A stretch of DNA of 64,000 nt from Sphingosinicella sp. (GTDB lineage Bacteria; Pseudomonadota; Alphaproteobacteria; Sphingomonadales; Sphingomonadaceae): contig JACDEE010000004.1 of NCBI GenBank assembly GCA_013816585.1, positions 3,017-67,016 of the forward strand, given 5' to 3'. A program made the translations under genes and the position numbers. Positions 2,671 through 34,005 of the stretch are shown in pieces (the first letter of the stretch is position 1; every line of letters begins with the position of its first letter). The notes under the pieces are model-generated. The model worked only from the letters and a program-made list of their open reading frames with translations, was not told where the DNA came from and searched no databases.

Positions 2671-5253
2671 ATGCCCCAGATTCTGAATATGCCCGCCACG
2701 ATCCGCCGCGAGGATTACCGGCCGCCCGACTGGCTGATCCCCGAGATCGCGCTCGAATTCCACCTGGCCGCCGAAATCACGACGGTCAGATCGACGCTGA
2801 AGGTCGAACGGAACGGCGCGCATGACCGGCCACTTCGGCTGGATGCCGAGGCCCTGGATTTGGTCAGCGTCGAAGTCGACGGCGAGCCCGCAAGGTACAG
2901 CCTGGAAGACGAAGTCCTGACCGTGCACCTCGATGACAGCTCCGCCGTCGTGACGACCGCCACCAGGATCGCGCCGCGCGAAAATTCACAATTGATGGGC
3001 CTTTACGAATCGGGCTGCATATTGTGCACGCAGTGCGAAGCACAGGGTTTCAGGCGGATCACGCCTTTTCCCGACCGGCCCGACATATTGTCGCGCTATC
3101 GAGTCAGGATGGAGGCGGACAAGACGCTCTATCCCATCTTGCTTTCCAACGGCGACCCGGTCGCGGCAGGCGATCTGGAAGGCGGCAGGCACTGGGCCGA
3201 ATATAACGACCCCTTCCCCAAGCCCTGCTATCTGTTCGCGATCGTTGCCGGCGATCTTGCCGCCAATCGCGATCATTTCATCACCCGGTCAGGCAAGGAA
3301 GCGGAGCTCGGCATCTGGGTGCGCGAGCAGGATCTGCCCCGGACGAGCCACGCGATGCACGCCCTGAAGACCGCCATGGCGTGGGACGAAAAGGTCTATG
3401 GCCGCGAATATGACCTGGATGTGTTCAACATCGTCGCGGTCGCCGATTTCAATTTCGGGGCGATGGAGAATAAGGGCCTCAACGTCTTCAATTCGCGTTA
3501 CGTGCTGGCCGATCCGGATACGGCAACCGATGCCGATTACGATTCCGTGGCGGGCGTGGTCGCGCACGAATATTTCCACAATTGGTCGGGCAACCGCGTC
3601 ACTTGCCGCGACTGGTTCCAATTGAGCCTGAAGGAAGGCTTCACCGTTTTCCGCGACCAGCAATTTTCCGCCGATCAGGGATCGGAGGCGGTCAAGAGGA
3701 TCCAGGACGTGCGCGTGCTTCGGTCCTCGCAATTCCAGGAAGATGGGGGACCGCTCGCCCATCCGGTCCGGCCTGAATCCTATATCGAGATATCCAATTT
3801 CTACACCGCGACGGTGTATAATAAGGGCGCCGAACTGATCCGGATGCTCCACACGATATTGGGGCCGGAGAAATTCCGCGCGGGCACCGACCTTTATTTC
3901 CAACGCCACGACGGCGAGGCGGCGACCTGCGAAGATTTCGTGCGCGCGATGGAAGAGGCCGGTGAGACCGACCTGGGGCGTTTCCGTACATGGTACGAAC
4001 AAGCGGGAACGCCGCGCGTGAAGGCGGCGCTCACCCACGAGACGGCTGGCGGGCGAGCCCATTTGACCCTGGAGCAGCATTTACCCGCCACGCCGGGGCA
4101 GCCTGAAAAGAAACCGATGCCCATCCCTTTGAAGATCGCCTTGTTCGGCGAACTGAAGGGCGCAAAACTCGCCGAGCGGCTGGTATTGCTGGAGGATCAG
4201 GCGCTGGAGCTGACCTTCGACGATGTAGGCGAACGGCCGATATTATCGATCAACCGCGATTTCTCCGCGCCGGTGATTGTCGAAACAGCGAGAAGCGCCG
4301 ACGATCTGGCCTTCCTTTCGGCCAAAGACGACAATCCCTTCGCGCGGTTCGAGGCCATGCAGCAATTGATGCTCGATACCATGGTCGCTTCGGTGATGGG
4401 CCAGGCGGTCGACCATCGCCCGGTGATCGAAGCGGTTCGCGAGACGCTGGGCGATGCGGCGCTGGACCCGGCCTTCGTTGCCGAAACCGTCTTGTTGCCG
4501 AGCGAGGCCTTCGTTGGCGATCATATGCCGGAGGTAGAGCCAGAGGCGATCCATACCGCGCGCGAGGCATTGAGGGGCGATTTGGGCCATGAGCTCGAAA
4601 CCCTGTGGCGTGCGGCCTATCAGGCGACGTCGCTGGCCAAAAGGTTTGAATATTCATCGGTGGCCAAGGGGGCCCGGCGCCTGCGCAGCGTGTCGCTGGG
4701 CTATCTTGCCGCTTCAAAGGCCGATGACGCTGCCGCGATCGCGATGCGCCAGTATGAGCTGGCCGACAATATGACCGACCGGCAGGGAGCGCTTACCACG
4801 CTCGCCAACAGCGACTCGGCCGAGAGGCCCCGGGCGCTTGCCGCCTTTTACGACCGCTATCGGAATGACGATCTTGTGCTCGACAAATGGTTCACCACCC
4901 AGGCCCTGTCGACCCGGGACGACACGCTGGCAACCGTCCAGGCGCTCGCCCGGCACCCGGACTTTACGCTCAACAACCCGAACCGACTTCGTTCTTTGGT
5001 GTTGGCCTTCGCGGCAAATCAACGCGCTTTCCATTCGGGGTCCGGCGCCGGCTATCGGTTTTTGGCGGACATGATCCTGGCGGTAGAGAAGCTCAATCCG
5101 CAAACAGCGGCGAAACTGGTGCCGCCCTTGGGTCGCTGGCGCCGGTTCGGTGAGGTGCGCGGAACCTTGATGCGCGCCGAGCTCCAGCGGATCGTCGAAA
5201 CGCAGGGCCTGTCAAAGGACGTGTTCGAACAAGCCTCGAAAAGCCTGGGCTAG
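2671..5253 (+). CDS. pepN: aminopeptidase N (M1 zinc metallopeptidase)
   Basis: 860 aa. GAMEN motif (FGAMENKG), the zinc site HEYFHNWSGNRVT with downstream E (WFQLSLKEGFTVF), and a PepN-type C-terminal domain. Confidence 0.95.
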   Translation: MPQILNMPATIRREDYRPPDWLIPEIALEFHLAAEITTVRSTLKVERNGAHDRPLRLDAEALDLVSVEVDGEPARYSLEDEVLTVHLDDSSAVVTTATRIAPRENSQLMGLYESGCILCTQCEAQGFRRITPFPDRPDILSRYRVRMEADKTLYPILLSNGDPVAAGDLEGGRHWAEYNDPFPKPCYLFAIVAGDLAANRDHFITRSGKEAELGIWVREQDLPRTSHAMHALKTAMAWDEKVYGREYDLDVFNIVAVADFNFGAMENKGLNVFNSRYVLADPDTATDADYDSVAGVVAHEYFHNWSGNRVTCRDWFQLSLKEGFTVFRDQQFSADQGSEAVKRIQDVRVLRSSQFQEDGGPLAHPVRPESYIEISNFYTATVYNKGAELIRMLHTILGPEKFRAGTDLYFQRHDGEAATCEDFVRAMEEAGETDLGRFRTWYEQAGTPRVKAALTHETAGGRAHLTLEQHLPATPGQPEKKPMPIPLKIALFGELKGAKLAERLVLLEDQALELTFDDVGERPILSINRDFSAPVIVETARSADDLAFLSAKDDNPFARFEAMQQLMLDTMVASVMGQAVDHRPVIEAVRETLGDAALDPAFVAETVLLPSEAFVGDHMPEVEPEAIHTAREALRGDLGHELETLWRAAYQATSLAKRFEYSSVAKGARRLRSVSLGYLAASKADDAAAIAMRQYELADNMTDRQGALTTLANSDSAERPRALAAFYDRYRNDDLVLDKWFTTQALSTRDDTLATVQALARHPDFTLNNPNRLRSLVLAFAANQRAFHSGSGAGYRFLADMILAVEKLNPQTAAKLVPPLGRWRRFGEVRGTLMRAELQRIVETQGLSKDVFEQASKSLG

Positions 5254-5858: not shown

Positions 5859-6803
5859 TCATTCCGGCTTGTAAGTGGGAAGCTTGTCGCCGCCGATCAG
5901 CCCGCCAATGCCCTGGCGATCGACCTTCGTCGTGATGCTGTTCAAATTCTCGGTCGTCTCACGCAGATCGCGAACCAGCAGGCCGATTTCGGGAATGGTC
6001 TGTTTGGTCAGCGCATCGATGCCGGGGCGAGCATCGGTGAGCAAGGAGTCGAGATTCTTCATACTGGTCTCCGCCGCGCGGATGGTGTGGCGCAGGTCGT
6101 TGACCAGAGGCTTGCCGTCCGCATTCAGGAGCTGTTCGGTCGAACCGGCCACTCGTTCGAAGGAGGCGGCGGCGCGACCGGCCTGGGCAATGGCAAGGCG
6201 CGCCTCGGCCAGGGTGGCGGCGATTTCGGGAGAGCGGTCGGCGAGGGAGTCGGTGATTTCCTGGGTATTGGCCAGGATGCCCTTGATCGACTTCTGATTA
6301 TCCTCGTCGAGCGTCTCCGAAAGCCGCTCCGTCAGGGTCGAAACCCGTTCGAGCAATTCGGGAGCGCTGTTGAGCAACTCGCCCAGCGCGCCGGGCTTGG
6401 TCGGGATGACGGGAACGCCATAAGGGCCCTTCTCGGTGATCGGGGGTGCTCCCCGTGCGGCGCCGTCCAGCTGGATCTGCGAGACGCCCGTAAAACCAAC
6501 GCCCTGGATCGTCGCTGTGGTGCCCTGCAATACCGGCGTGTCGGATCGGATGGAAATACGGACCCGGACGAATTCCGGGCTGTTCGGCTCAAGCCCGATC
6601 AGTTCGACCTGGCCGACGGGCACGCCCGAAAAGCTCACGACCGACCCTTTGGCAAGGCCATCGACGGCCTGTTTGAAGAAGATGTCGTATTTCTTGGTGT
6701 CGTCGCCCGACACCTGGCTGAGCCAGATGATGAAGGCCACGACGGCGACGATCATCGCCAGCACGACGCCGCCGACGAGAATATGGTTGGAGCGCGTCTC
6801 CAT
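5859..6803 (-). CDS. MlaD/Mce-family substrate-binding protein
   Basis: 314 aa. N-terminal TM anchor (ILVGGVVLAMIVAVVAFIIWL), an MCE domain and a coiled-coil C-terminus. Its start overlaps the stop of the upstream ATPase gene. Confidence 0.85.
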   Translation of the reverse strand: METRSNHILVGGVVLAMIVAVVAFIIWLSQVSGDDTKKYDIFFKQAVDGLAKGSVVSFSGVPVGQVELIGLEPNSPEFVRVRISIRSDTPVLQGTTATIQGVGFTGVSQIQLDGAARGAPPITEKGPYGVPVIPTKPGALGELLNSAPELLERVSTLTERLSETLDEDNQKSIKGILANTQEITDSLADRSPEIAATLAEARLAIAQAGRAAASFERVAGSTEQLLNADGKPLVNDLRHTIRAAETSMKNLDSLLTDARPGIDALTKQTIPEIGLLVRDLRETTENLNSITTKVDRQGIGGLIGGDKLPTYKPE

Positions 6804-7594
6804 CAGCGGTCAGCGTCCTTTGCTATCGTTGCAGCCGCGCGTCCGCGCGGTCCCTTGAAATATTCCTGTATCCATTCATGGTCCAAAGCCAATAGTTCCG
6901 GAATCGTTCCAACCGCCACCACCTTATGATCGGCGAGCACCGCGACACGGTCGCAGATGGCGTACAATGTGTCGAGGTCGTGCGTGATCAGAAACACGGT
7001 GAGGCCCAACGCGTCGCGAAGGTCCTTGATCAGCTGGTCGAACGCCGCCGCGCCGATCGGATCGAGGCCCGCGGTGGGCTCGTCGAGGAACAACAGCTCC
7101 GGATCCAGCGCCAAAGCGCGCGCAATGCCGGCGCGTTTGCGCATGCCGCCGGACAATTCGGAAGGATATTTGGGCCCGGTTTCTGCGGGAAGACCCGTCA
7201 TCACGATCTTGTACGCGGCTATCTCATCCAGCAATTGCCCCTCGATCCGCGGGAAATATTCGCGAATCGGGACCTGGACGTTCTCGGCCACGGTCAGGGT
7301 TGAGAATAAGGCTCCGCCCTGGAACAATATCCCCCAACGCCGGCGGATATGCTTGGCTTCGTTTTCCTCGCGGTCCAGCATCGGCTCCCCAAAGACCTCG
7401 ACCTCGCCCTCATCCGGCCGTTGCAATCCGATGATCGAGCGCATCAGCACCGATTTGCCAGTGCCCGAGCCGCCGACCACCCCAAAAATCTCGCCGCGCC
7501 GGACCTCCAGGTCCAGCCCTTCATGCACCAATTGGTCGCCGAAGCTGTTCTTGAGGCCCCTGACCTCGATGATCGGTTCGCCCTTGCCCTTCAT
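6803..7594 (-). CDS. ABC transporter ATP-binding protein (MlaF-like)
   Basis: Walker A GGSGTGKS, signature LSGGMRKR, Walker B LLFLDEPT. I take the start at MKGKGEPIIEV (ATG 7594, ATGA overlap with the permease stop). The longer 496-aa ORF extension is Arg/Pro-rich shadow sequence. Confidence 0.9.
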   Translation of the reverse strand: MKGKGEPIIEVRGLKNSFGDQLVHEGLDLEVRRGEIFGVVGGSGTGKSVLMRSIIGLQRPDEGEVEVFGEPMLDREENEAKHIRRRWGILFQGGALFSTLTVAENVQVPIREYFPRIEGQLLDEIAAYKIVMTGLPAETGPKYPSELSGGMRKRAGIARALALDPELLFLDEPTAGLDPIGAAAFDQLIKDLRDALGLTVFLITHDLDTLYAICDRVAVLADHKVVAVGTIPELLALDHEWIQEYFKGPRGRAAATIAKDADR

Positions 7595-24600: not shown

Positions 24601-26363
24601 ACTTCCAGCGAGAAATCGTGAATATATCCAAGCCGCCCTTCGTCCAGCGGCGTCGGCTGCTCCTCCAGCACCCGAAACCCGAAATTCTCGAATACAGGGA
24701 CCGCTTCGGACAGCGGGATCACTCCGGCGAGGCGATAGGTTTTGAGGTGCAATTGCGCCGGACCGTCGGACGCCTTGCGGTAAAGGCGTGCATCCCGCGC
24801 ATTCGCGCCCTTCATCTCGGAAATGCGAAGCACGTCCTGCGCCGCCTCTTCGGCGCTCGTATGCGTCCGATAACTTTCCGGGAAATCGTCCATGAAGCCG
24901 ATCGCAAGGCGGGTCGCGCGCGATACGCCCACCATTTCGCCGAGCGCCTCTTCGACGCTCGGCTCCCAGCCGCGGACCATGTCGACCAGTCGGGCATCGA
25001 GCCCCGCCGCGTCCGACATGGGCGCGTCGTCCTTCACGTCCAGCATGTAGCGGATCAAGGCGAGATCGCCCTCGCCCAGTTCGACCGACCAATTGGATAT
25101 GGTCCCTTGCGCCGCTCCCTCGATCATCTCGCCGATGGCGACGCGGCGCTGCGTATTGAGCTCGTCGCGCGGCAACCAGACGAAGGCGAAAATGTGCCGC
25201 TTCAAAACGCTCGGCAGCAACATCAAGGTCGGGCGCGGACGGTCGGCCAGCGACATCGCGGTCATGGCCAGCGTCTTGACCGCGTCGGAACCCAGGCCAA
25301 TCAGCAGATCGTGCGGCAAAGTCGCGACCGCATGGCGCAGAGCCTTGCCGGCATGTCCCTTGGGATCGAAATTGAATTCCTCTTCCAGCCCTGCGAGCCG
25401 CCGCCGCAGCAGGGGCACGTCTTCCGCCGGTGCCTTCAGCGCCTGGCTGGTCCAGAGGCCCGCATGAACCGAAAGGCCGGTGACTTCCTTGCCCTCGGTC
25501 ACGGGCACGATCACCAGGTCGAACGGCACGCGGCGGTGAACCGTCGAAAGCCGGTCGGCCTTCACGATCAAGGGCGCGGGATTGCCCTGCATGAAATATT
25601 CGGTGGCGCCCCCACAGGCATTTTCGGTCCAGAGCGCGGCGCCCGGCAGCTTCAGGAAGCCCAGCGCCTGCTCGCTTGCGGACGAACATTGAACCTGGTG
25701 CCCGAGCAGGGTCATCGCGCCGTCGGCGAACCAGCGAAGCAAAGCGGCTCCCTCTGCTTCGCCAAGCGCTTGCGCATCGGTGCGCATGCGTTGCTGCAGC
25801 GCCTGCCAGTCCTGCACCGACGCCCGGACATCGCCCAGCACCTGATAAAGCTCGGCTTCCAACTCGCGCCGCTCGCGAGCATCGGCGCGGTCGAGCTCCA
25901 TATACATGATCGATTCCCGCGCGGGGAGCTCGGCGCAGCGGACCTCCAGGCGCCTCAATATACCGTCGGCGTCGCGCTCCGCGCAGACGACCGGGTGGAG
26001 CAGGCGGTGGATGATAAGGTCCTTGGCGGCGATGGCCGCCGCCACCGAATCCACCAGGAACGGCATGTCGTCATTGACGATGCACAGCCGCATCCGACGC
26101 TGACCGACCGCGCCGCCCGAGGATTCAAGACGGATGAGCGCCGCGCCGGGCCGGCGTTTCCGGGCCGCGAGCGCTATGAACGCCGCCGCATTGTCCCTGT
26201 CCTCGTCGGAAAAGCCGGCTATTTCGCCCGGCAGCGCGCTGTTCAGCAACGCTTCGCTGATACCGGCAACCAATTTTCGGTCGGCCGGCTGGTCTGCCGC
26301 CTTGTCACCGGCGTCGCTTCCCGGGGAAGCGCCTTTGGATCCAGCAACATTGTCCGCAGTCAT
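21660..26363 (-). CDS. NAD-specific glutamate dehydrogenase, large (~180 kDa) type
   Basis: 1567-aa ORF with the size and conserved catalytic core of large bacterial NAD-GDH (e.g. PTGAKGGF, VVAADKGTA, GGSQGYDHKAMGITARG). Confidence 0.95.
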   Translation of the reverse strand: MTADNVAGSKGASPGSDAGDKAADQPADRKLVAGISEALLNSALPGEIAGFSDEDRDNAAAFIALAARKRRPGAALIRLESSGGAVGQRRMRLCIVNDDMPFLVDSVAAAIAAKDLIIHRLLHPVVCAERDADGILRRLEVRCAELPARESIMYMELDRADARERRELEAELYQVLGDVRASVQDWQALQQRMRTDAQALGEAEGAALLRWFADGAMTLLGHQVQCSSASEQALGFLKLPGAALWTENACGGATEYFMQGNPAPLIVKADRLSTVHRRVPFDLVIVPVTEGKEVTGLSVHAGLWTSQALKAPAEDVPLLRRRLAGLEEEFNFDPKGHAGKALRHAVATLPHDLLIGLGSDAVKTLAMTAMSLADRPRPTLMLLPSVLKRHIFAFVWLPRDELNTQRRVAIGEMIEGAAQGTISNWSVELGEGDLALIRYMLDVKDDAPMSDAAGLDARLVDMVRGWEPSVEEALGEMVGVSRATRLAIGFMDDFPESYRTHTSAEEAAQDVLRISEMKGANARDARLYRKASDGPAQLHLKTYRLAGVIPLSEAVPVFENFGFRVLEEQPTPLDEGRLGYIHDFSLEVRDGDAAGVMQRAKLVEKTISAVLEGGAENDVFNQLLVAAGLNSRDVVLFRAWFRYLRQTGLSYSMVTVVDALRRAPDVTRGLIALFDAQHDPSIQGSRTGAIEAAQKAITQGLANVAAIDEDRILRLLGGVIAAILRTNAFAASGREALAFKLDSSLVPGLPAPVPWREIWVYSPRVEGIHLRAGPVARGGLRWSDRRDDFRTEILGLLKAQIVKNAVIVPTGAKGGFYPKQLPPIADRDAWLAEGTECYRAFIRTLLSVTDNLVDGKIVHPEDVTVRDGDDPYFVVAADKGTASFSDVANEIATSRKFWLGDAFASGGSQGYDHKAMGITARGAWVSVQRHFAEMGVDVQTQPVSVVGCGDMSGDVFGNGMLLSKTIRLLAAFDHRHIFLDPDPDAAKSWDERNRLFNLPRSSWDDYDKALISKGGGVFPRSQKSIPLSPETKQALGLTVKEIDPAGLITAILKAPADLIWFGGIGTYIKAKSESNSEVGDPANDAIRINGADIRAKAIGEGANLGLTQAGRIEFAQAGGRVNTDFIDNSAGVDCSDNEVNIKISLNREMLEGRLSFEDRNNLLVEMTDDVAEIVLEDNRLQTLALSIAERGGAAALPSLVRAIEILEEGGRLNRAVEGLESNEILLRRAQENRGLTRPELAVLLSTSKMALQAAIEAGKLTEDATLTPELCGAFPKVMQQRHGEAILTHQLRREIIATKIANRFVNRLGITAPFSLTEEEGASFGQAAAAFVAAERLFGMDELWRELDTAVLAEDIRLELFDQASRALQLHIADILRSTPATAKLEQIVDTIRPGLEKLNEAVNRLLREEALSQAGSMRARLKTLGAPDSVADRIVRLYELNGGIGIAVLGQKMGIDELALTEAYTKLGEVLGLDWAQTAANRFQATDQWERLLTAGLAREFEQLRLDFLERRKGDNPQAAVDQWAAKQAARIDQFRRIVDRARISPVTTAPMLAQIATQARMLLAR

Positions 26364-26447
26364 AAGGTTCGGCTCCTGACGCTCGCACGGCTGTCCGGCC
26401 GTCGGCTTCGCGCGGGGCTATAGCCATCGCAAGGGCCAAGCGGCAAG

Positions 26448-26486
26448 GCGCAAGGCCTGCCGGCCGCCGAAATAGTGGCCTTGCGC
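26448..26486 (-). terminator. 10-bp perfect inverted repeat downstream of the 26499-27152 gene (possible terminator)
   Basis: GCGCAAGGCC (26448-26457) and GGCCTTGCGC (26477-26486) are separated by 19 nt. No clear U-tract follows. Confidence 0.3.
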
Positions 26487-26498
26487 GAAGGGCCCGCG

Positions 26499-27152
26499 TC
26501 AGGCGCTGAGCGGAAGCTCGCGATGCGCGGCTTGGTGAACCGACGCCGCTATTGCGGCGCTCCAGCCCGCATGGGGGCCCTGCCGGAAGCCGGCGAGAGC
26601 CTGGCCGACCTCGAATGCGATTGCGGCGGTCTCTTCGCTGTCCGCGAATTCGCGCCAGGTGAGCATGCCGGCGATGAAATCGATCCGGTCCGACCGGTCG
26701 GATCGGTCCGACAATGGCAAAAGGATCGCGCGGTAAAGTATCCGTTCGCCCGTCGGCCCCATTTGCTCGCCCTCGAATGCCAGCGGCTCGCCAGTGGCGA
26801 GAATTGCGGGATAATGGCCGGTCAGTCGAGACAGCAAGCTGTCGGCCGGGACGTCGCGAACCGCGTGGATTTCCGCCTCGCCGCAGGGTTCGCGGAGTGC
26901 CTGGCCGATCCTGGCCATGACCGGATTGTGGTTGCCGCCGCGAAGGTCGAGCAGCAGGCTGTGCGGCCCGTTCAAACTGGCAGGGTCCATGTCCTGGATC
27001 GAAGGGAGTCTGCGCCCCCGAAGCGCTGACACCCAGCGGCGATAGGCACGAATCTGGACGCGGCGGTCGTCGAGGCGGGATGTGGAAGGAAGGTCGATGT
27101 CGCCTGGGCCGCCAGGATCCCCGCCTTCACTTGCCGTACCGAGACTGTCCAT
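26499..27152 (-). CDS. hypothetical protein, PAS_5/DUF1457-like
   Basis: 217 aa. The central and C-terminal parts (YRAILLPLS..., IDFIAGMLTW) resemble the alphaproteobacterial PAS_5 family. This is from recollection only. Confidence 0.5.
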   Translation of the reverse strand: MDSLGTASEGGDPGGPGDIDLPSTSRLDDRRVQIRAYRRWVSALRGRRLPSIQDMDPASLNGPHSLLLDLRGGNHNPVMARIGQALREPCGEAEIHAVRDVPADSLLSRLTGHYPAILATGEPLAFEGEQMGPTGERILYRAILLPLSDRSDRSDRIDFIAGMLTWREFADSEETAAIAFEVGQALAGFRQGPHAGWSAAIAASVHQAAHRELPLSA

Positions 27153-27292
27153 CCGCCGATTCCTTATCCGTGCCCCAAGGAATCGCCCAATGTGGTTGAG
27201 AAAGGCTTAAAATCGTTGCGGCCCTGCAACGGCCAGCGCGCTTGTCTTTGACCGGACCCGCTGATAATGCGCGCCGTCCTCACCGTAGGTAC

Positions 27293-27368
27293 GCCGCTTT
27301 AGCTCAGCTGGTAGAGCACATCATTCGTAATGATGGGGTCAGGTGTTCGAGTCACCTAAGCGGCACCA
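27293..27368 (+). tRNA. tRNA-Thr (anticodon CGT)
   Basis: Cloverleaf read by eye. Acceptor GCCGCTT/AAGCGGC, D-arm AGCTCAGCTGGTAGAGC, anticodon loop TTCGTAA, T-arm GGTGTTCGAGTCACC, and an encoded CCA. Confidence 0.9.
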
Positions 27369-27464
27369 CCGTCCAAGTCATACGCGCAGGCGATGGCCAT
27401 CGCGTGATCGGCCGATGAAACCATTGCCCTTATGCGGGCGGAAGTGGCTTCGTGCGGAAGGTAA

Positions 27465-27488
27465 AGGGGTGCCGGGATCCCAGCACCC
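27465..27488 (-). terminator. hairpin terminator downstream of the repeat-protein gene
   Basis: GGGGTGC-N10-GCACCCC, a perfect 7-bp GC-rich stem. On the minus strand it is followed by TTTACCTT and lies 16 nt after the stop codon. Confidence 0.5.
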
Positions 27489-27503
27489 CTCGAAATTCAA
27501 ATC

Positions 27504-27857
27504 TTAATCGATTGCGTTCCGGGCGCGGTCGAGCGGACCACGGTTTGGATCGTCACGGCCGTCAAGCGCGTTGGCGGCGCGATCGACCGGACCCTTGTTG
27601 GGGTCGTCGGTGCCGTCGATTGCATTCTGCGCGCGGTCGAGTGGGCCCCTGTTGGGATCATCTGTGCCGTCGATAGCGTTCTGTGCCCGATCTACTGGAC
27701 CCTTGTTGGGGTCATCTGTGCCGTCGATCGCATTAGCGAGCCGGTCGAGCGGGCCGCGATTGGGATCATCATGGCCGTCAAGCGCATTGGCTACTTTATC
27801 GGCCAAGGTATCGTTCGGCTTTTGCGAAGCCTCGTTTTGCGTGTCGCGATCGCTCAT
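27504..27857 (-). CDS. acidic tandem-repeat protein (5.3 copies of an 18-aa N-A-[IL]-D-G-x-D-D-P-N-[KR]-G-P-[LV]-D-R-A unit), function unknown
   Basis: ATG at 27857 with GGAGAG 6 nt upstream. The repeat copies differ only at synonymous third positions in this frame, which supports translation. Confidence 0.75.
   Translation of the reverse strand: MSDRDTQNEASQKPNDTLADKVANALDGHDDPNRGPLDRLANAIDGTDDPNKGPVDRAQNAIDGTDDPNRGPLDRAQNAIDGTDDPNKGPVDRAANALDGRDDPNRGPLDRARNAID
27507..27791 (-). repeat. in-frame 54-nt tandem repeat (108-nt alternating super-repeat) inside the CDS
   Basis: Direct reading. The units alternate between NRGPLDR and NKGPVDR variants, giving 5 full units plus a 5-codon partial unit. 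Confidence 0.9.
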
Positions 27858-27898
27858 GATATTCTCTCCTGACTGGCCCAGGTGCGGGCGCATCTTCT

Positions 27899-27923
27899 AA
27901 CAAGCGCGGACCCACGGAGTTCC
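27899..27923 (-). promoter_or_regulatory. near-consensus sigma-EcfG-like promoter (GGAAC-N16-TGTT) upstream of the repeat-protein gene
   Basis: Minus strand reads GGAACtccgtgggtccgcgctTGTT, about 40 nt upstream of the ATG. The alphaproteobacterial GSR consensus is GGAAC-N16-17-CGTT, so there is one mismatch in the -10 element. Confidence 0.35.
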
Positions 27924-28045
27924 TTAATTCCCGGGACACGATACTTGATTCCATAATTCCGGTGACACGATAATTAATCCTGGTTGTTGCGGCCTGGCTT
28001 CTGAAATTCTGGGCAGGCAATACTTAATTCTGGCTGGCTCGGTCA
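27919..28045. repeat. AT-rich iterated motif array (TTAATTCY-like, 6 copies; includes a 19-nt direct repeat at 27925 and 27954)
   Basis: TAATTCCCGGGACACGATA (27925-27943) and TAATTCCGGTGACACGATA (27954-27972) match at 17/19 with a 29-nt period. Related TTGATTCC, TAATTAATCC, GAAATTCT and TTAATTCT copies extend to 28031. Confidence 0.6.
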
Positions 28046-28184
28046 TGGCTTCTTCCAGACCGGCGTTTGCCCCAACTCAGCCTCTAATCACTCGATGAAA
28101 GTCATTGCCGCTACCGCTCGGCATACGGCCCGTTAAGTTACGGCCACCTTCCGATGCCGCCGCTGCCGTCCGGAACCGCGCCCA

Positions 28185-29129
28185 TCATCGGCTGAATATG
28201 GCCGCGACCAATGCGATCCGCTCGACCTCCCGATAGGCGGGAGAATTGAGCTCCTCGCCGAAAACGTCGGGGTCGAGCTCACGATATTGGAGCCGGCATC
28301 CATTAACCCTGGCGACCATCTCCAGCTTCGCTTTCATCGCGTCGATCCCGGCGACGATCGCGCTCCCCGAATAAAGTATGAAGCGGCCGACCTTGGAGAG
28401 CCGGGGCAGTACCGCTTCGGTCATGTCGATCGAAACCTGTGCCCCGTGGTTAGAGCCGCCGTCGCGATAGAGACGGCTGTCAGGGTCGATTATGTAGGGC
28501 GGGTTGGCGATGGCGATATCGATGACTCCAGAATAACCAGCCAGCACGTCGCCGCATCGGGCCTCCACAGTGACCCCGGCCACGCGCGCGTTGACCCGCG
28601 CATAAGTGAGTGCGACCGGATTGATGTCGGTCACCACCACCCTGGCCTCGGGAACCGATCGAGCCGCGATAATGGCCCCGACCCCGGACCCGGTGCCGAC
28701 ATCCAGAATGACCGGGGGCTGGTCCCAGGACCGACCCTTCAGGTCATCCAGTTGCGCGCGCACCAGGTCGGCGAAGCGATAACTGTCCGGCCCCAGGAAA
28801 ACGGCGTCCGGCGCGTCGGTCGGATAGGAAGAGTGGACGAACAGATCGCCATGAACCCTGGAAACCCGCACAAGCGAGCGCAGGATCCCGGCCGTTTCGA
28901 TCAGCAATTTCGCGTCACGCAGCGATTTTTCGACTTCCAGGTCGAACGTTCCTGGGGGGAAGGGCAGGCTCCAGCCCAGGGCATCGCGCAGGTCACCCGC
29001 ATATTCCCCGCGCCGCCGATCTAGATTGTTCGAGTGCGTGGCGGGAGTCACCGTCACGAAATCATAATTTCGTTGATCGAGGCACCGGAGCAGCCGTTCC
29101 AGGGCAAGGTCGCGGGCGGATTGATCCAC
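28185..29129 (-). CDS. class I SAM-dependent methyltransferase with NPPY motif (PrmC/HemK-like amino-group methyltransferase)
   Basis: 314 aa. Motif I is VILDVGTGSGVG, followed by an acidic loop (VVTDIN), and motif IV is IANPPYI. Confidence 0.8.
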   Translation of the reverse strand: MDQSARDLALERLLRCLDQRNYDFVTVTPATHSNNLDRRRGEYAGDLRDALGWSLPFPPGTFDLEVEKSLRDAKLLIETAGILRSLVRVSRVHGDLFVHSSYPTDAPDAVFLGPDSYRFADLVRAQLDDLKGRSWDQPPVILDVGTGSGVGAIIAARSVPEARVVVTDINPVALTYARVNARVAGVTVEARCGDVLAGYSGVIDIAIANPPYIIDPDSRLYRDGGSNHGAQVSIDMTEAVLPRLSKVGRFILYSGSAIVAGIDAMKAKLEMVARVNGCRLQYRELDPDVFGEELNSPAYREVERIALVAAIFSR

Positions 29130-29174
29130 TATCTTATGTCAGTCTGATTTCAGCCATTTAGCCGTTTCTAGCAC

Positions 29175-29200
29175 GGAACAAGGGTCTCGCATCCGACGTT
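29175..29200 (+). promoter_or_regulatory. sigma-EcfG-type (general stress response) promoter motif GGAAC-N17-CGTT
   Basis: GGAACaagggtctcgcatccgaCGTT is an exact match to both conserved blocks and ends 6 nt before the first ATG of the downstream ORF. Confidence 0.5.
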
Positions 29201-29206
29201 TTTCGA

Positions 29207-30169
29207 ATGATGGGGCCCAGCAACTCAAATAGGCCGATGGGCCGCGTACAAGCACCCGAACCGGCCGTGATGAGCGACGCCTTTCAGCAGCGCCTTGCCC
29301 GTTGGAACCGCGATCGCCTGGCGCCCGGCTTTCCCGACCAGGATTTTGCGGCGACCAGTGCCCGCGATCAGCAGATGCGGATCACCGAGGCGGGATTCTT
29401 TACCGAGCTTCGCGAGGAGGTGGCCGATCTCGCGGCCGCTGCGCCGGCCTCGCCCGCCGATTTCGTTGCCTGGTACGAAGAATTGAAACAGACCGGCCCG
29501 GGGCAGAATGATCCGCTTTTTCCATGGCTCGCGGAACATGCCAGCAAAGCCGAATTGCGCTGGTTCTTCGAACAGGAGGCGGCGGGCGAGGCAGGGTTCG
29601 ATGATCTGGTCGCACTCACCCAGGTGAAGATGCCGACGGCGGCCAAGCTGGAACTCGCGCGAAATTACTGGGACGAAATGGGCCGCGGCAACGCCAAGGG
29701 CATGCACGGGCCGATGCTGCAGATCCTGGCCGACGCCCTTCAAGTCACGCCGACGATCGAAAATACCATTCCGGAAAGCCTTGCGCTTGCCAACGCGATG
29801 ACCGCCATGGCGACGCGCCGGGATCTTGCCTGGCATTCGATCGGCGCGCTTGGCGTTATCGAACTGACCGCCCCGACACGCGCATCCAAAGTCTCGGCTG
29901 GATTGCGGCGGGTGGGTTTCAACGGCCGGCAACGCCATTATTTCGACTTGCATGCCGTGCTGGACGTCAAGCACAGCGAGGCATGGGTGTCGGAAGTCAT
30001 AAGGACGCTGGTGGCCGAAGACCCGGCGCGCGCGCGCTTTATCGCGGAAGGCGCGCTGATCCGACTCAGATGCGGTCAGCGTTGCTATGCGCGATACCGG
30101 AGCGAGTTGTGGCGCACTGCCTCCGCGCCAAGGCCCGGTCACGAAGCGCCGGGTCGCCAGGCCGCGTGA
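29207..30169 (+). CDS. iron-containing redox enzyme family protein (heme-oxygenase-like diiron fold, PF14518-like)
   Basis: 320-aa ORF with Glu/His-rich helices (EQEAAGEAGFDD, NYWDEMGRGNAKGMHGPM, HYFDLHAVLDVKHSEAW) typical of HO-like diiron oxidases. The true start may be the internal ATG at 29237 or 29270, given the promoter position. Confidence 0.7.
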   Translation: MMGPSNSNRPMGRVQAPEPAVMSDAFQQRLARWNRDRLAPGFPDQDFAATSARDQQMRITEAGFFTELREEVADLAAAAPASPADFVAWYEELKQTGPGQNDPLFPWLAEHASKAELRWFFEQEAAGEAGFDDLVALTQVKMPTAAKLELARNYWDEMGRGNAKGMHGPMLQILADALQVTPTIENTIPESLALANAMTAMATRRDLAWHSIGALGVIELTAPTRASKVSAGLRRVGFNGRQRHYFDLHAVLDVKHSEAWVSEVIRTLVAEDPARARFIAEGALIRLRCGQRCYARYRSELWRTASAPRPGHEAPGRQAA

Positions 30170-30187
30170 CCCGCGGACTTCGTTGAA

Positions 30188-31495
30188 GTGCGAATCCTGG
30201 GCTTCACGGAAACCTGCGACCTGGGCGCGCTCTATCGCAGCCTGATCGCCGAGGGCCATGAGGTCCGGATCATAATTTCTGAAGCCGAAGCGCGTGGGAC
30301 GATGCGCGGCCTCGTCACGCAAATAGAGGATTGGGACGCTGCCCTCGAATGGGTCGGCCACGACGGGCTTATCCTGTTTGAAAGCGTGTCGGAGGGTTAT
30401 GGCGAGCGGCAGGATGCCTTGCGGCTCCAGGGCTATCGAGTGATTGGCGGGAGCGCCTGGGGCGACCGGCTGGAAAATGACCGCGCCTTTGGGCAGGAAC
30501 TGCTCGCGGAGCTCGGCTTCCCGGCCGGCCATGTCTGGGAATTCGCCGAGGTCGCGGAGGGTATCGACTTCATCGGCAAGCGACCCGCCCGCTACGTCAT
30601 CAAATTCAGCGGACCCGATTTTTCTTCCGGGGATAATTTTATCGGCGAGATGACGGACGGCGCGGACGTGGCGGCCTATCTGTCGTGCAAGAGCGGTCTG
30701 CTGGACGGCGGTTCGCGCTATGTCCTGATGGAATTTATCGAGGGAATCGAAATGGGCGTCGGCGCCTATTTCAACGGCGAGCGTTTTCTGCGGCCCGCCT
30801 GCCTCGATTGGGAACATAAGCGCTTCTTCGCCGGCGACATGGGCGAATTGACCGGCGAGATGGGCACCGTTGCGACCTTCACCGGTAGCGATGTTTTTTT
30901 CGAAGCCACCTTGCTCGGGCTGGAGCCTTATTTTCGAGGCCGAGGCCATATCGGCTACGTCAATCTCAACACTATCGTGAACGATGCCGGGATCTGGCCG
31001 CTCGAATTCACCTGCCGCTTTGGATATCCAGGTTTCGCCGTGCTCGATCCGCTGCAGGAAACCCCGTGGGGCGATTTGTTCGAGCGGATGCTCGATCCCG
31101 GCAGCGCGGCCATGGAAATTGCTCCGGGCTTCTCGACCGGCATAGTCGTCACGACCCCGCCCTTTCCCTACAGCCGGAAGCAGATGGACGAGCCGATAGG
31201 TCTGCCGATCCTGCTCTCGCCTTCTTTGACTCCGGAGGACCATGATCATCTGCATTATGGCGAAGTCGGTCTGGCGGGGGATCAATTGATCACGAGCGGG
31301 CTTTACGGCTGGACAATGGTGGTCACAGGGACCGGCGCCAGCATAAACGGTTCGATCCAGGCCGCTTATGATCGCGTGGCCAAAATCCATGTCCCTCGCG
31401 GGCGCTACCGGCTTGATATCGGCGACCGCATTGCTGACGAATATGAGCGCCTGGAAACATTGGGCTGGATCGGCCCGGGCGCGGGGTTTTCGTGA
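30188..31495 (+). CDS. PurD-family ATP-grasp ligase paralog (phosphoribosylglycinamide-synthetase-like)
   Basis: 435 aa with a GTG start. DWEHKRFFAGDMGELTGEMG matches the PurD signature DHKR..GD.GPNTGGMG. YVNLNTIV...PLEFTCRFGYPG matches PurD's EFNCRFGDPE. Confidence 0.8.
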   Translation: MRILGFTETCDLGALYRSLIAEGHEVRIIISEAEARGTMRGLVTQIEDWDAALEWVGHDGLILFESVSEGYGERQDALRLQGYRVIGGSAWGDRLENDRAFGQELLAELGFPAGHVWEFAEVAEGIDFIGKRPARYVIKFSGPDFSSGDNFIGEMTDGADVAAYLSCKSGLLDGGSRYVLMEFIEGIEMGVGAYFNGERFLRPACLDWEHKRFFAGDMGELTGEMGTVATFTGSDVFFEATLLGLEPYFRGRGHIGYVNLNTIVNDAGIWPLEFTCRFGYPGFAVLDPLQETPWGDLFERMLDPGSAAMEIAPGFSTGIVVTTPPFPYSRKQMDEPIGLPILLSPSLTPEDHDHLHYGEVGLAGDQLITSGLYGWTMVVTGTGASINGSIQAAYDRVAKIHVPRGRYRLDIGDRIADEYERLETLGWIGPGAGFS

Positions 31496-31499
31496 TTCC

Positions 31500-31898
31500 A
31501 TGGGGCTGAAACAACTTCCGCACGAACAGGTGATGGTGCGCCTCGCGCCCTCGCCCATATCCGGGATTGGTGTGTTCTCCGCGCAGCATATTGGCGAGGG
31601 CACCAACATCTTTGCCAACGACATGCGTGCCATTCGCTGGATCAGCGAGAAAGATGTCGCGGCGCTTAGCGGGCCCCAGCGCGCCTTGTATGACGATTTC
31701 GCCATCCGTCGCGATGGAGAATATGGCTGCCCGGAAAACTTCAATCTTCTGACGGTCGGCTGGTATCTCAACGAACCGGCGGCGGGCCAATCCCCGAACG
31801 TCCATATGACCGAAGATTATCAGATCATCGCTTCACGCGACATTGCGACGGGGGAAGAGATTACCGTCCGATATTCGACTTTTTCGGATAGTGTTTGA
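31500..31898 (+). CDS. small SET-domain-like protein (putative lysine methyltransferase fold)
   Basis: 132 aa, ATG 4 nt after the upstream stop. It has GIGVFS (the SET GxG block) and a C-terminal GEEITVRYS (an ELxxxY-like block). The NHS block is degenerate (LNEPAAG..PNV). Confidence 0.55.
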   Translation: MGLKQLPHEQVMVRLAPSPISGIGVFSAQHIGEGTNIFANDMRAIRWISEKDVAALSGPQRALYDDFAIRRDGEYGCPENFNLLTVGWYLNEPAAGQSPNVHMTEDYQIIASRDIATGEEITVRYSTFSDSV

Positions 31899-31948
31899 GA
31901 TTGCGGCTAGCGGATACGGATAAGGTCGCTGGCGCTTGCGCCACGAGG

Positions 31949-32272
31949 TCAGAGCGCCAGATGCTCCACCGCCGCCCGCAACCTTTCGTCATTGCGTTGC
32001 CGGTCTTCTGCACTCTCCAGCCGTTCAAGAAGGCGCCGCTGCTTTTTCAACAGGGTTTGCACTCGTTTGGCGGCTACCTGATAGGCCCTGATCCGAACGC
32101 GCCGCGCATGATTAGACTTCCTGCGCGGGTCGGCCGCCCGCTCTCGCTCCAGCATCACCTCGGCAAGTCCATTGAGAATGAGCAGGGCGCCGTTCAGCCC
32201 CTCCTCAACGCCCTGCGCCCTGGCAAGTTTTTCCCGCTCGCCGGCCGATGTTTCCAAGCGAGGCCGTTTCAC
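31949..32272 (-). CDS. hypothetical small charged/coiled-coil protein
   Basis: The GTG at 32272 overlaps the ppk2 TGA (GTGA). It encodes 107 aa rich in R/E/L/A heptad-like sequence. No recognisable family. Confidence 0.35.
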   Translation of the reverse strand: MKRPRLETSAGEREKLARAQGVEEGLNGALLILNGLAEVMLERERAADPRRKSNHARRVRIRAYQVAAKRVQTLLKKQRRLLERLESAEDRQRNDERLRAAVEHLAL

Positions 32273-33045
32273 AGCGAATAATTCTCGATCGGTTTCAACT
32301 GGCCGTAGCGTTCTTTCTTCGGCTTGCCGGCGAGAGGGGCAAAGGGAATTTCTTTTTCCGGCACCCTGGTCTCGGGCAACCGGTCGAGCAAGTCGCGAAC
32401 CAGCGTCAGCCGGCCCAATTTCTGATCGTTGAAATCGACCAGCGTCCAGGGCGCATCGGCGGTGTGGCTGGCCTTTAACATCGCCTCGCGCGCCTTGGTA
32501 TAATCGCCATATTTCTCGCGCGCCGCCAGGTCGATCGGCGAAAGTTTCCACCGTTTCAGGGGGTCGATCAGCCGCTCTTCGAACCGTTCTTCCTGCTTCG
32601 CCTGGTCACAGGTCAGCCAATATTTGAAGAGAAGGATGCCGTCATCCACCAGCTGTTTCTCAAAGCTTGGGGCCTGTTCCAGGAAAGCTTCGGCCTGCGC
32701 GTCAGTGCAATAGCCCATCACCCGCTCGACCCCTGCCCGGTTATACCAGCTTCGGTCGAACAGGGCGATTTCCCCGGCCGCAGGAAGGTGAGCGACATAG
32801 CGCTGGAAATACCATTGCGACCTTTCGCGCTCGCCTGGTTTGGAAAGGGCGACCACCCGGCACTGGCGCGGGTTCAGATTTTCGGAAATGGCCTGGATCG
32901 CGCCGCCCTTTCCCGCCGTGTCCCGGCCTTCGAATATGATCAGCAATCTCTTGCCGCATTCCTGCACCCACCGCGCCGCCTGGATCAATTGCTCCTGCAT
33001 CGGCTGCAGCAGGGCCTCATATTCCTTCCGCTTCAACTTCGACAT
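32269..33045 (-). CDS. ppk2: polyphosphate kinase 2
   Basis: Walker A-like FEGRDTAGKGG plus the SWYFQRY and FDRSWYNR motifs. Start taken at MSKLKRKEY with a GGAAGAGGA RBS. Confidence 0.9.
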   Translation of the reverse strand: MSKLKRKEYEALLQPMQEQLIQAARWVQECGKRLLIIFEGRDTAGKGGAIQAISENLNPRQCRVVALSKPGERERSQWYFQRYVAHLPAAGEIALFDRSWYNRAGVERVMGYCTDAQAEAFLEQAPSFEKQLVDDGILLFKYWLTCDQAKQEERFEERLIDPLKRWKLSPIDLAAREKYGDYTKAREAMLKASHTADAPWTLVDFNDQKLGRLTLVRDLLDRLPETRVPEKEIPFAPLAGKPKKERYGQLKPIENYSL

Positions 33046-33226
33046 AAGGTCCTCTTCCTGACGAACGTTATTCACGCAAATCAAACCGGTGTGCAGCGAC
33101 CGGCGCCGTCTTCCTACTCCGCATCAACGACCAGGGGGTGCGACATTCCTTGGAATCAGCTGCCCTGGCGTGACACGAATGGCTTCGCCCCATTGCGGAG
33201 GTTCGCCCGGATGGTAAACCAACCTG

Positions 33227-34005
33227 ATGGCCAAACTATCCGACGCCTTGCATGGGTTCGAAATTCAGGGCGACCACCATGTCATCGAAGCGCCGGAGGA
33301 TTGGTCACAAGGCCGGACTCTTTATGGGGGGATGACCACGGCGCTTTGCTACGAGGCGGCCAAGCTTCAATGTGGCCCCCAGGCCCAATTGCGATCGGCG
33401 CAAATGACGTTTGTCGGTCCCGCGAGCGGCATCCTCACCTTTCGGGCAGATGTCCTTCGTGCCGGAAAATCCAGCACCGCGATCGCCGTCGATTGCCGGA
33501 CCGGGGAGGCGCTGGCGGCGCGCGCCAGTTTCGTGTTCGGCGCCGACCGGTCGAGCCTGATCGATGGTCGGGCCAGCCGGCGGACTGACCTTCCGGACCC
33601 GCCGGAGGCCTGTCCCCCCTTCATTGGCGCTACCGGAGGGTTTCACGACAATTTCGAACTTAAGCTTGCGGACGGATCCCCGCTCTGCAGCGGCGGGCCG
33701 CTCGGTTTCAGAGCGTGGACTCGGTTCCGCGAGGGGCCGGGGACGGACCCATGACCGCCTTGCTCGCGCTGGCGGATTCACTGCCACCGGCCGCCATGGC
33801 GGGCTTTCCGCAATCCGTGCCGATCAGCACGATGACGTGGGCATTGGATGTGATGGAGGCCCCCTCCGACATGGACGGATGGCACCTGCTCATGTCCGAA
33901 AGCGATCATAGTCTGAACGGCTATTCGATGCAGTCGATGTCGCTTTGGGACGCACAGGGTAAGCATTTGGCGATTGGCCGGCAGGTCGTTGCCATTTTCA
34001 TCTAG
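33227..34005 (+). pseudogene. TesB-like acyl-CoA thioesterase (double hotdog) interrupted by a 1-nt frameshift
   Basis: The N-terminal 175 aa (33227-33754) and C-terminal ~85 aa (33751-34005, a different frame) together give a family-typical ~260 aa. The junction is at the CCC run at 33748-33750. Confidence 0.6.

Follow-up and report, generated by a model that had tools for sequence, protein, structure and literature searches.

A conserved alphaproteobacterial gene neighbourhood linking an HrmI-like diiron oxygenase, a PurD-fold ATP-grasp ligase, a SET protein and an NPPY methyltransferase, with general-stress promoter motifs

The window analysed here is a 64-kb stretch of contig JACDEE010000004.1 of Sphingosinicella sp., and the block in question occupies approximately positions 27293-31898. 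A sequence-only reading of this block had described five open reading frames (ORFs) beside a tRNA-Thr gene, two short intergenic gaps and several quoted sequence motifs, all of which are present as described. Four of the ORFs, which encode a methyltransferase (MTase), a heme-oxygenase-like diiron oxidase/oxygenase (HDO), an ATP-grasp ligase and a small SET-domain protein, form a real conserved gene neighbourhood, referred to below as the module. The fifth encodes an acidic repeat protein that lies outside the module. The features of the module are as follows.

28185-29129, minus strand: class-I S-adenosylmethionine (SAM) methyltransferase of the HemK/N6AMT1 (NPPY) type, 314 amino acids (aa) (Pfam MTS, E=1e-10)
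29175-29200, plus strand: GGAAC-N17-CGTT motif of the σEcfG type (ECF15, general stress response), 6 nucleotides (nt) before the ATG at 29207
29207-30169, plus strand: HDO of the BelK/HrmI type (Pfam PF14518, Haem_oxygenas_2, E=7e-42)
30188-31495, plus strand: PurD-fold ATP-grasp ligase of a non-PurD subfamily, the hub of the module (Pfam GARS_A 37.6 bits, GARS_C 28.8 bits)
31500-31898, plus strand: minimal SET-domain protein, 132 aa (Pfam SET, PF00856, 26.2 bits versus a cut-off of 22.4)

The three plus-strand genes are closely packed, with 18 nt between HDO and ligase and 4 nt between ligase and SET. Pfam matches confirm the families previously read from the sequence (a heme-oxygenase-like diiron enzyme, a PurD-family ATP-grasp paralog, a SET-like protein and an NPPY MTase). 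The composition of the block is unremarkable, a scan for sigma-70 promoters and terminators gave no signal above chance, and the nearest relatives of the window proteins come from metagenome-assembled genomes of Sphingomonadales. The parts belong to known superfamilies; their combination is an orphan enzyme module. The set had not been recognised as a characterised pathway, and this still holds: we found no close characterised orthologs, and a literature search returned no published description of the module.

The ligase was searched for in one genome per GTDB species, and relatives are encoded in approximately 475 species genomes. Nearly all of these are Alphaproteobacteria, from the Sphingomonadales, Caulobacterales, Rhodospirillales and Hyphomicrobiales, the last including Bradyrhizobium, Methylocystis, Rhodopseudomonas, Enterovirga and Lichenibacterium. 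The window proteins were mapped onto the best 80 ligase loci of the ~475 genomes, and neighbourhoods were counted in the 56 ligase-centred loci whose flanks reach 4 kb or more on either side of the ligase. Gene calls in the related loci, which are approximate, combined tblastn and hidden Markov model mapping with the requirement that GC content at third codon positions (GC3) exceed that at both first (GC1) and second (GC2) positions; clustering of all ORFs was confounded by "shadow" ORFs on the antisense strand of this GC-rich DNA.

At 46 of the 56 loci the ligase has a SET-like gene within 3 kb, and at 43 within 300 bp. HDO and MTase are both near the ligase at 32/56 loci (57%), SET is alone beside it at 18, and only 2 loci lack SET, HDO and MTase altogether. 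Wherever an HDO gene is found in these loci, an MTase gene accompanies it. Across four orders of Alphaproteobacteria the four genes are arranged in 27 ways that differ in order and orientation, and tight co-directional MTase-HDO-ligase runs in Hyphomicrobiales are among them. Proximity is conserved while gene order is not, which is what functionally coupled genes usually show. The synteny that the sequence-only reading had asked for is thus present, and the divergent MTase gene does belong with the plus-strand operon, being syntenic in many genomes and in several gene orders; linkage seen from the HDO side is looser. No comparable linkage was found at the 80 ligase loci for the genes encoding NAD-glutamate dehydrogenase, PPK2, a thioesterase, an HD-GYP protein, the repeat protein or a 217-aa ORF of the window. 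Enoyl-CoA hydratase, a Crp-like regulator and glycosyltransferase/Glf fusions were considered as members and rejected, as they adjoin the module only in some lineages.

The SET protein is the core partner of the ligase. SET genes beside the ligase fall into at least three subtypes, all matching PF00856, and some loci carry two. An exhaustive HMMER search yielded a natural ligase::SET fusion (P0182, 578 aa; positions 3179-4915 of locus L212, on a 73-kb contig) with 51% identity to the window ligase and a C-terminal SET domain of the window type. A stand-alone SET gene at 2781-3170 of the same locus lies just before the fusion. The whole module is also found on a 128-kb plasmid of a cultured strain, Sphingomonas daechungensis KACC 18115 (NZ_CP060781, 41.4-45 kb; locus L164), where HDO and ligase are each spread over two frames, representing frameshifts or pseudogenes, and a HisKA-type kinase gene lies nearby.

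The position and consensus of σEcfG promoters, within 100 bp of the coding sequence, have been described for Sphingomonas melonis Fr1 (PMC6599016). The motif at 29175-29200, the only perfect site in the 64-kb window, fits the pattern of a GGAAC -35 element and a CGTT -10 element separated by a spacer of approximately 16-17 nt, no more than about 100 bp from the start codon. Since the -10 element ends at 29200, the HDO may start at the alternative ATG at 29237, which gives a protein of 310 aa and is the NCBI gene call. In its strict form (GGAAC-N15-18-CGTT) the motif is rare in the ligase-centred loci, with 54 sites in 1.15 Mb; 15 of these are directly upstream of SET and 2 upstream of HDO. Expressed by gene, 15 of 71 SET upstream regions carry it (0.43 expected).

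HDO genes were also sampled independently by scanning metagenome contigs with the HDO alignment, which yielded orthologs 60-68% identical to the window protein. In this HDO-centred set 17 of 64 upstream regions have the strict motif (0.65 expected), stand-alone HDO genes included, and overall it is enriched approximately 30-fold upstream of SET or HDO genes. From this enrichment in relatives, and from a position that matches the S. melonis Fr1 consensus, we conclude that these genes are recurrent predicted members of the general stress regulon. The earlier suggestion of an EcfG promoter is strengthened accordingly in its outline and needs correction in one detail: EcfG-like motifs had been placed before both transcription units, and they do precede the HDO operon and the repeat-protein gene, but the MTase gene has none of its own. 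The minus-strand motif can drive the repeat gene only, because it lies between the MTase and repeat genes, downstream of the MTase. A third and last relaxed EcfG-like site in the window (GGAAC-N16-TGTT) is at 432-456 on the minus strand.

The best match of the HDO in the PDB is HrmI (9n1a; E=1.6e-29, 32% identity over 227 aa). Across 42 relatives there is no variation at E157, H167, E219, Y245, H249, D253 or H256; their counterparts in BelK, where the ligands have been validated by mutation, are E205, H215, E269, Y295, H299, D303 and H306 (PMC11611017), and the spacing of the metal ligands (E, H, E, H, D, H) and the Tyr is nearly the same in the two proteins. Judged by these residues, the HDO is very likely an active diiron oxygenase. 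HrmI and BelK, which serve as L-lysine Nε-oxygenases in the pathways to hormaomycin and belactosin, oxidize the ε-amine of free L-lysine to a hydroxylamine and then to a nitro group, and HrmI binds free L-lysine via the backbone. The window HDO shares their PF14518 family, ligand set and conserved Tyr, but identity to them is low. HrmI and BelK reside in actinomycete antibiotic clusters, whereas the window HDO is alphaproteobacterial and stands under a stress sigma-factor motif. No HrmJ/BelL-type partner (iron/2-oxoglutarate-dependent) and no BelN-like partner is detectable among the annotated window neighbours, and this absence of pathway partners suggests that the HDO is not a functional HrmI ortholog.

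Two further HDO systems offer comparisons. Mangotoxin-type clusters (mboA/C/D) likewise pair an HDO that tailors an amino acid with ATP-grasp ligases, but their ligases are of a different clade and the module adds a SET partner; moreover, those clusters are sporadic toxin or antibiotic clusters, whereas the module is chromosomal, widespread and apparently stress-regulated. The mangotoxin supplement mentions neither SET nor the taxa of the module. A 2026 survey counts at least 25 distinct types of HDO plus ATP-grasp cluster, most of which it does not characterise. In the case of SznF the substrate is Nω-methyl-L-arginine, so that methylation precedes the HDO step.

The ligase matches only PurD structures in the PDB (E=1e-28) and resembles PurD in fold, in its recognisable GARS_A and GARS_C domains, and in the loop EHKR...TGEMG, which corresponds to DHKR...NTGGMG of PurD. 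The GARS_A score of 37.6 bits exceeds the cut-off of 27, and the nucleotide-binding K139 and Mg-binding E273 are invariant, as expected of an ATP-grasp enzyme. It is nevertheless not a PurD. Its score against the PurD equivalog TIGR00877 is 81.8 bits, with a cut-off of 288; CRFGYPG stands where PROSITE PS00184 demands R[LF]GDPE; and the ATP-grasp Mg-binding motif ExN is replaced by ExT (LEFT). The N-terminus of PurD carries a Gly-rich loop of the GGREHA type, whereas the window ligase has the signature TETCDLG and lies outside any purine context. GARS_N (PF02844) is matched neither by the whole ligase nor by residues 1-99, even at E<=10, and at that threshold Pfam returns for the N-terminus only a negligible, chance-level match.

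T275 and Y280 are conserved in the family, including archaeal, haloarchaeal, Bacteroidota and viral relatives. Brown et al. (2011) applied the same criterion to haloarchaeal "extra PurD-like" proteins with such traits and judged them not to be true GARS (PMC3261824). The failed signature tests rule out a true purD paralog in purine synthesis, and the name "phosphoribosylamine--glycine ligase" that public records often give to family members is probably a misannotation.

More distant relatives of the ligase occur outside the Alphaproteobacterial module. Forty-four viral contigs encode proteins of 25-33% identity with the same PLEFTxR ExT signature (IMG/VR loci L169-L210, with the ligase match at approximately 6001-7300 in most; proteins P0312, P0199 and P0222); the viral ligase matches no PHROG family, and several of these relatives contain LAGLIDADG/Hint inteins. 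On a plasmid of the Bacteroidota species Chondrinema litorale (L166, 6001-7739), a GNAT acetyltransferase gene overlaps a ligase gene whose product is 32% identical to the window ligase. A Roseomonas haemaphysalidis plasmid (L165) encodes a ligase of 45% identity, with an aminotransferase and a set of type III polyketide synthase, methyltransferase and FAD (flavin adenine dinucleotide) monooxygenase genes as neighbours.

The SET protein was modelled with AlphaFold2 from an alignment (predicted local distance difference test score, pLDDT, 83), and all of the top 50 PDB matches to the model in Foldseek are SET domains, with vSET the best (E=6e-7) and MLL, SET7/9 and SETD8 among the others. The fold that the sequence-only reading had proposed, and for which it had called for profile and structure comparison, is confirmed by this result together with Pfam. 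The catalytic-site Tyr125 and the asparagine N91 are invariant. The subtype present in the window has a conserved N-E-P (LNEP) where the canonical motif is N-H-S, and RY in place of the DY that ends the canonical C-terminal ELxxDY; sister subtypes adjoining the same ligase retain NHS and DY.

Two characterised proteins resemble the SET protein or its pairing with the ligase. BurB, the SET methionine S-methyltransferase of Burkholderia (PDB 9l4t), is likewise a small, stand-alone bacterial SET enzyme, and it has a metabolic role and a free amino acid as substrate. The profile match between the two is weak (E=0.048), histone-type SET domains score better and no specific relationship is indicated; BurB, moreover, methylates sulfur, and its cluster partners BurI, BurD and BurE are absent from the window. 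In eukaryotic TTLL12, a SET-like and a tubulin-tyrosine-ligase-like (TTL-like) ATP-grasp domain are joined in one protein, a pairing mirrored by P0182 and by the near-universal adjacency of ligase and SET genes. Its SET domain is N-terminal, unlike that of P0182, and TTL belongs to another ATP-grasp clade than PurD; the homology shown with the module is at superfamily level. The SET-like plus TTL-like architecture is documented (PMC3520985), and histone methylation is, as an abstract indicates, not a reaction that TTLL12 catalyses.

The MTase is an accessory member of the module. It has VILDVGTGSG at residues 140-149 and NPPY at 209-212; all 48 family sequences compared keep D143xGxGxG and N209-P210-P211, and the window protein has Y212. 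Its class-I fold, motif I and NPP(Y) motif IV are common to HemK/PrmC and N6AMT1, which provide the best NCBIfam and PDB matches (33 bits for N6AMT1/HemK in the PDB), but it scores far below the family cut-offs (67.4 bits versus 199 for PrmC TIGR03534, with only residues 122-220 aligned) and its N-terminal domain is unrelated. That domain, approximately 135 aa, is conserved and matches nothing in Pfam even at E<=10; a single-sequence AlphaFold2 model of the protein reached a pLDDT of only 35. Against the ATP-grasp peptide-maturase methyltransferase TIGR04188 the score is 17.7 bits (cut-off 380). Residues 135-291 match the N6-adenine DNA methyltransferase mad2 of the MADS system in PADLOC with 57.7 bits, near the HemK scores, and a nucleic-acid substrate for the MTase is conceivable. 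A known anti-phage defence system was considered and rejected: its components are not matched in PADLOC, where generic DNA methyltransferase models match the MTase only and the other four proteins of the block match nothing.

We tentatively propose, with rather less than even confidence, that the four genes are one σEcfG-regulon module that builds or tailors an amino-acid-derived stress metabolite. One EcfG-type promoter at 29175-29200 would drive the HDO-ligase-SET operon, with the MTase transcribed divergently. The product might be a small, amine-bearing, lysine-like amino-acid derivative with a protective role. The HDO would N-oxygenate a side-chain amine, as HrmI and BelK do on free L-lysine; the ligase would activate a small carboxylate as an acyl-phosphate and join it to an amine or hydroxylamine; and the SET and NPPY methyltransferases would N-methylate substrate or product, in an order of steps that is conjectural. 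All four enzymes would plausibly then act on nitrogen, through N-oxygenation, amide formation and two N-methylations. A small-molecule substrate is favoured because the nearest characterised relative of the HDO and PurD itself both act on free metabolites, because in BurB a bacterial SET enzyme is seen to methylate a free amino acid, because SznF is a precedent for a methyltransferase step followed by an HDO step, because clusters with HDO and ATP-grasp genes make small peptides such as mangotoxin, and because the HDO-ligase operon arrangements tie the ligase to the HDO. The overlap of the Bacteroidota ligase relative with a gene for GNAT, another amine-capping enzyme, leans the same way.

Several observations weigh against this proposal. 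Proteins are the substrates of nearly all SET domains and of HemK/N6AMT1. Linkage within the module is weak when viewed from the HDO side. In the window SET subtype Glu replaces the SAM-binding His, and with the ExN asparagine and the PS00184 aspartate missing, the chemistry of the ligase may differ from that of PurD. Near the module there is no conservation of genes for transport, precursor supply or further biosynthesis, and about three quarters of the loci lack the strict EcfG motif. The viral relatives show a recurrent podophage-like arrangement in which the ligase gene lies between those for DNA-ejection or internal virion proteins and tail-fibre genes, and one 1236-aa viral protein fuses portal, ATP-grasp and Mu-F domains; this placement in the virion module suggests macromolecular targets. 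The main rival is a stress-induced protein modification, in which the ligase adds an amino acid to a protein (RimK/TTL-like chemistry on a PurD fold), SET places a methyl group on a lysine of that protein, the MTase does so on a glutamine or other planar nitrogen, and the HDO provides an accessory oxidation. ATP-grasp and SET would then be a prokaryotic, stress-deployed device coupling an aminoacyl ligase to a lysine methyltransferase, sometimes in one polypeptide as in TTLL12; podophages would have adopted the ExT ligase clade as a virion-module, possibly ejected, enzyme; and HDO and NPPY MTase would extend the chemistry. The structural matches of the SET protein to vSET, MLL, SET7/9 and SETD8 fit such a device, SET domains being overwhelmingly protein lysine methyltransferases, as do the kinship of the MTase with protein glutamine methyltransferases, the TTLL12-like fusion, the virion-module placement of the phage relatives, the lack of conserved small-molecule pathway genes nearby and the GNAT partner, which can be read either way. 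However, a review of HDOs describes none that acts on proteins except the self-sacrificing CADD type, HrmI binds its lysine free, enzymes of the PurD fold ligate small molecules, the neighbourhood holds no conserved candidate for a target protein, TTLL12 itself appears from the abstract not to methylate histones, and the phage relatives are distant (25-33% identity) and have no SET partner beside them. We rank protein modification below the small-molecule proposal, as a possible but rather unlikely account.

It is more doubtful still that the genes share no pathway at all, with ATP-grasp and SET as one unit and HDO and MTase as another, or all four independent, brought together as co-regulated stress genes in related genomes. 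The HDO-centred sample speaks for such independence: in its 29 full-flank loci MTase is found at 13, ligase at 5 and SET at 3, and 16 have neither MTase nor ligase near the HDO. As the HDO is so often alone there, it is not a dedicated accessory of the ligase. The 18 ligase loci with SET alone, the separate EcfG motifs before SET or HDO, and widely varying flanking genes point in the same direction. Set against this are ligase-side co-localisation that holds in more than half of the loci across four orders and 27 arrangements, tight co-directional runs among them; the short gaps of the window operon; the lack of comparable linkage for the other flanking genes tested; and the constant company of HDO and MTase near the ligase. 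It may be that genes of one pathway are frequently scattered, or else that pairs of them can act independently. Finally, the enzymes had been suspected of modifying the adjacent repeat protein, as in a system of peptides made on the ribosome and modified after translation or another substrate-protein system. The genes are neighbours in the window, the repeat gene and the operon both have EcfG-like motifs, and the MTase has its very weak match to TIGR04188. However, none of the 80 ligase-centred loci and none of the 29 full-flank HDO-centred loci encodes the repeat protein, a search of 5.8 billion proteins gave only 19 homologs of it versus thousands for the ligase, and the two homologs inspected lie in unrelated contexts. 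Membership of the repeat protein is thus effectively refuted, and its role as substrate is highly improbable.

Whichever account is correct, the module is a widespread set of effector enzymes with active-site motifs that appear intact. The ~475 species with the ligase include strains of Sphingomonas, Bradyrhizobium, Methylocystis and Rhodopseudomonas, and a number of these strains are named isolates. Cultured carriers include Methylocystis rosea SV97, Sphingomonas sp. JC676, Sphingomonas antarctica, Enterovirga aerilata, Rhodopseudomonas rhenobacensis DSM 12706 and Bradyrhizobium sp. MOS003. If the small-molecule proposal is true, the module would make a new stress metabolite, represent just the second instance of a SET enzyme with a metabolite as its substrate, and give HrmI-type N-oxygenases a new role outside antibiotic pathways. 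If protein modification is true, bacteria would have in it a counterpart to the SET and ATP-grasp pairing of TTLL12, linked to phage virion enzymes. The analysis also corrects what is probably a recurrent misannotation of the ligase. The interest of the module rests on its breadth, its stress control, the coupling of SET and ligase, and the phage link.

The remaining features of the block lie on its tRNA side.

27293-27368, plus strand: tRNA-Thr(CGT) (ARAGORN, Rfam), an incidental neighbour
27504-27857, minus strand: acidic repeat protein, 117 aa, with five 18-aa units, outside the module
27923..27899, minus strand: EcfG-like motif GGAAC-N16-TGTT, 41 nt before the repeat-protein ATG at 27857

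The tRNA, the sole Rfam match in 26300-33300, had lent its name to the cluster, but its adjacency is incidental, since none of 44 related loci has a tRNA-Thr beside the module and composition is normal; a tRNA-linked genomic island was ruled out on the same grounds. The repeat gene consists of a 54-nt unit in five tandem copies, and an AGGAGAG ribosome-binding site follows its EcfG-like motif. A homolog at L083 has GGAAC-N16-TGTT 40 nt upstream of its start, another is fused to a YflT stress-protein domain, and of the two homologs on long contigs one is next to a HisKA_2 kinase. The most fitting view of the protein is that it is hydrophilic, evolves fast and stands apart from the module, under an EcfG-like promoter of its own. 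Just upstream of that promoter, at 27920-28027, are three direct copies of a 29-nt unit, TTCCTTAATTCCCGGGACACGATACTTGA (100%, 83% and 66% identity). The first copy overlaps the -35 GGAAC of the repeat gene, and the copies could represent an operator or reiterated promoter elements.

Three other parts of the window near the module are unusual. The 217-aa ORF mentioned above (26499-27152, minus strand), which separates tRNA-Thr from the NAD-glutamate dehydrogenase gene, is matched by nothing in Pfam or NCBIfam and is missing from related loci. SET and PPK2 are 370 bp apart, and in this interval, at 31949-32281, both strands carry overlapping ORFs; on neither strand do they have homologs in related loci or in Pfam; the plus strand carries a 106-aa gene called by NCBI, with coding-like GC3 and an odd sequence, and the minus strand would give a helical, Arg/Glu-rich peptide. 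Lastly, an acyl-CoA thioesterase II gene appears to be split between an ORF at 33227-33754 and the next ORF (L001 13040-13567 and 13564-13818, overlapping calls), one ORF holding the 4HBT_3 domain and the other 4HBT_3C, which may represent a frameshift.

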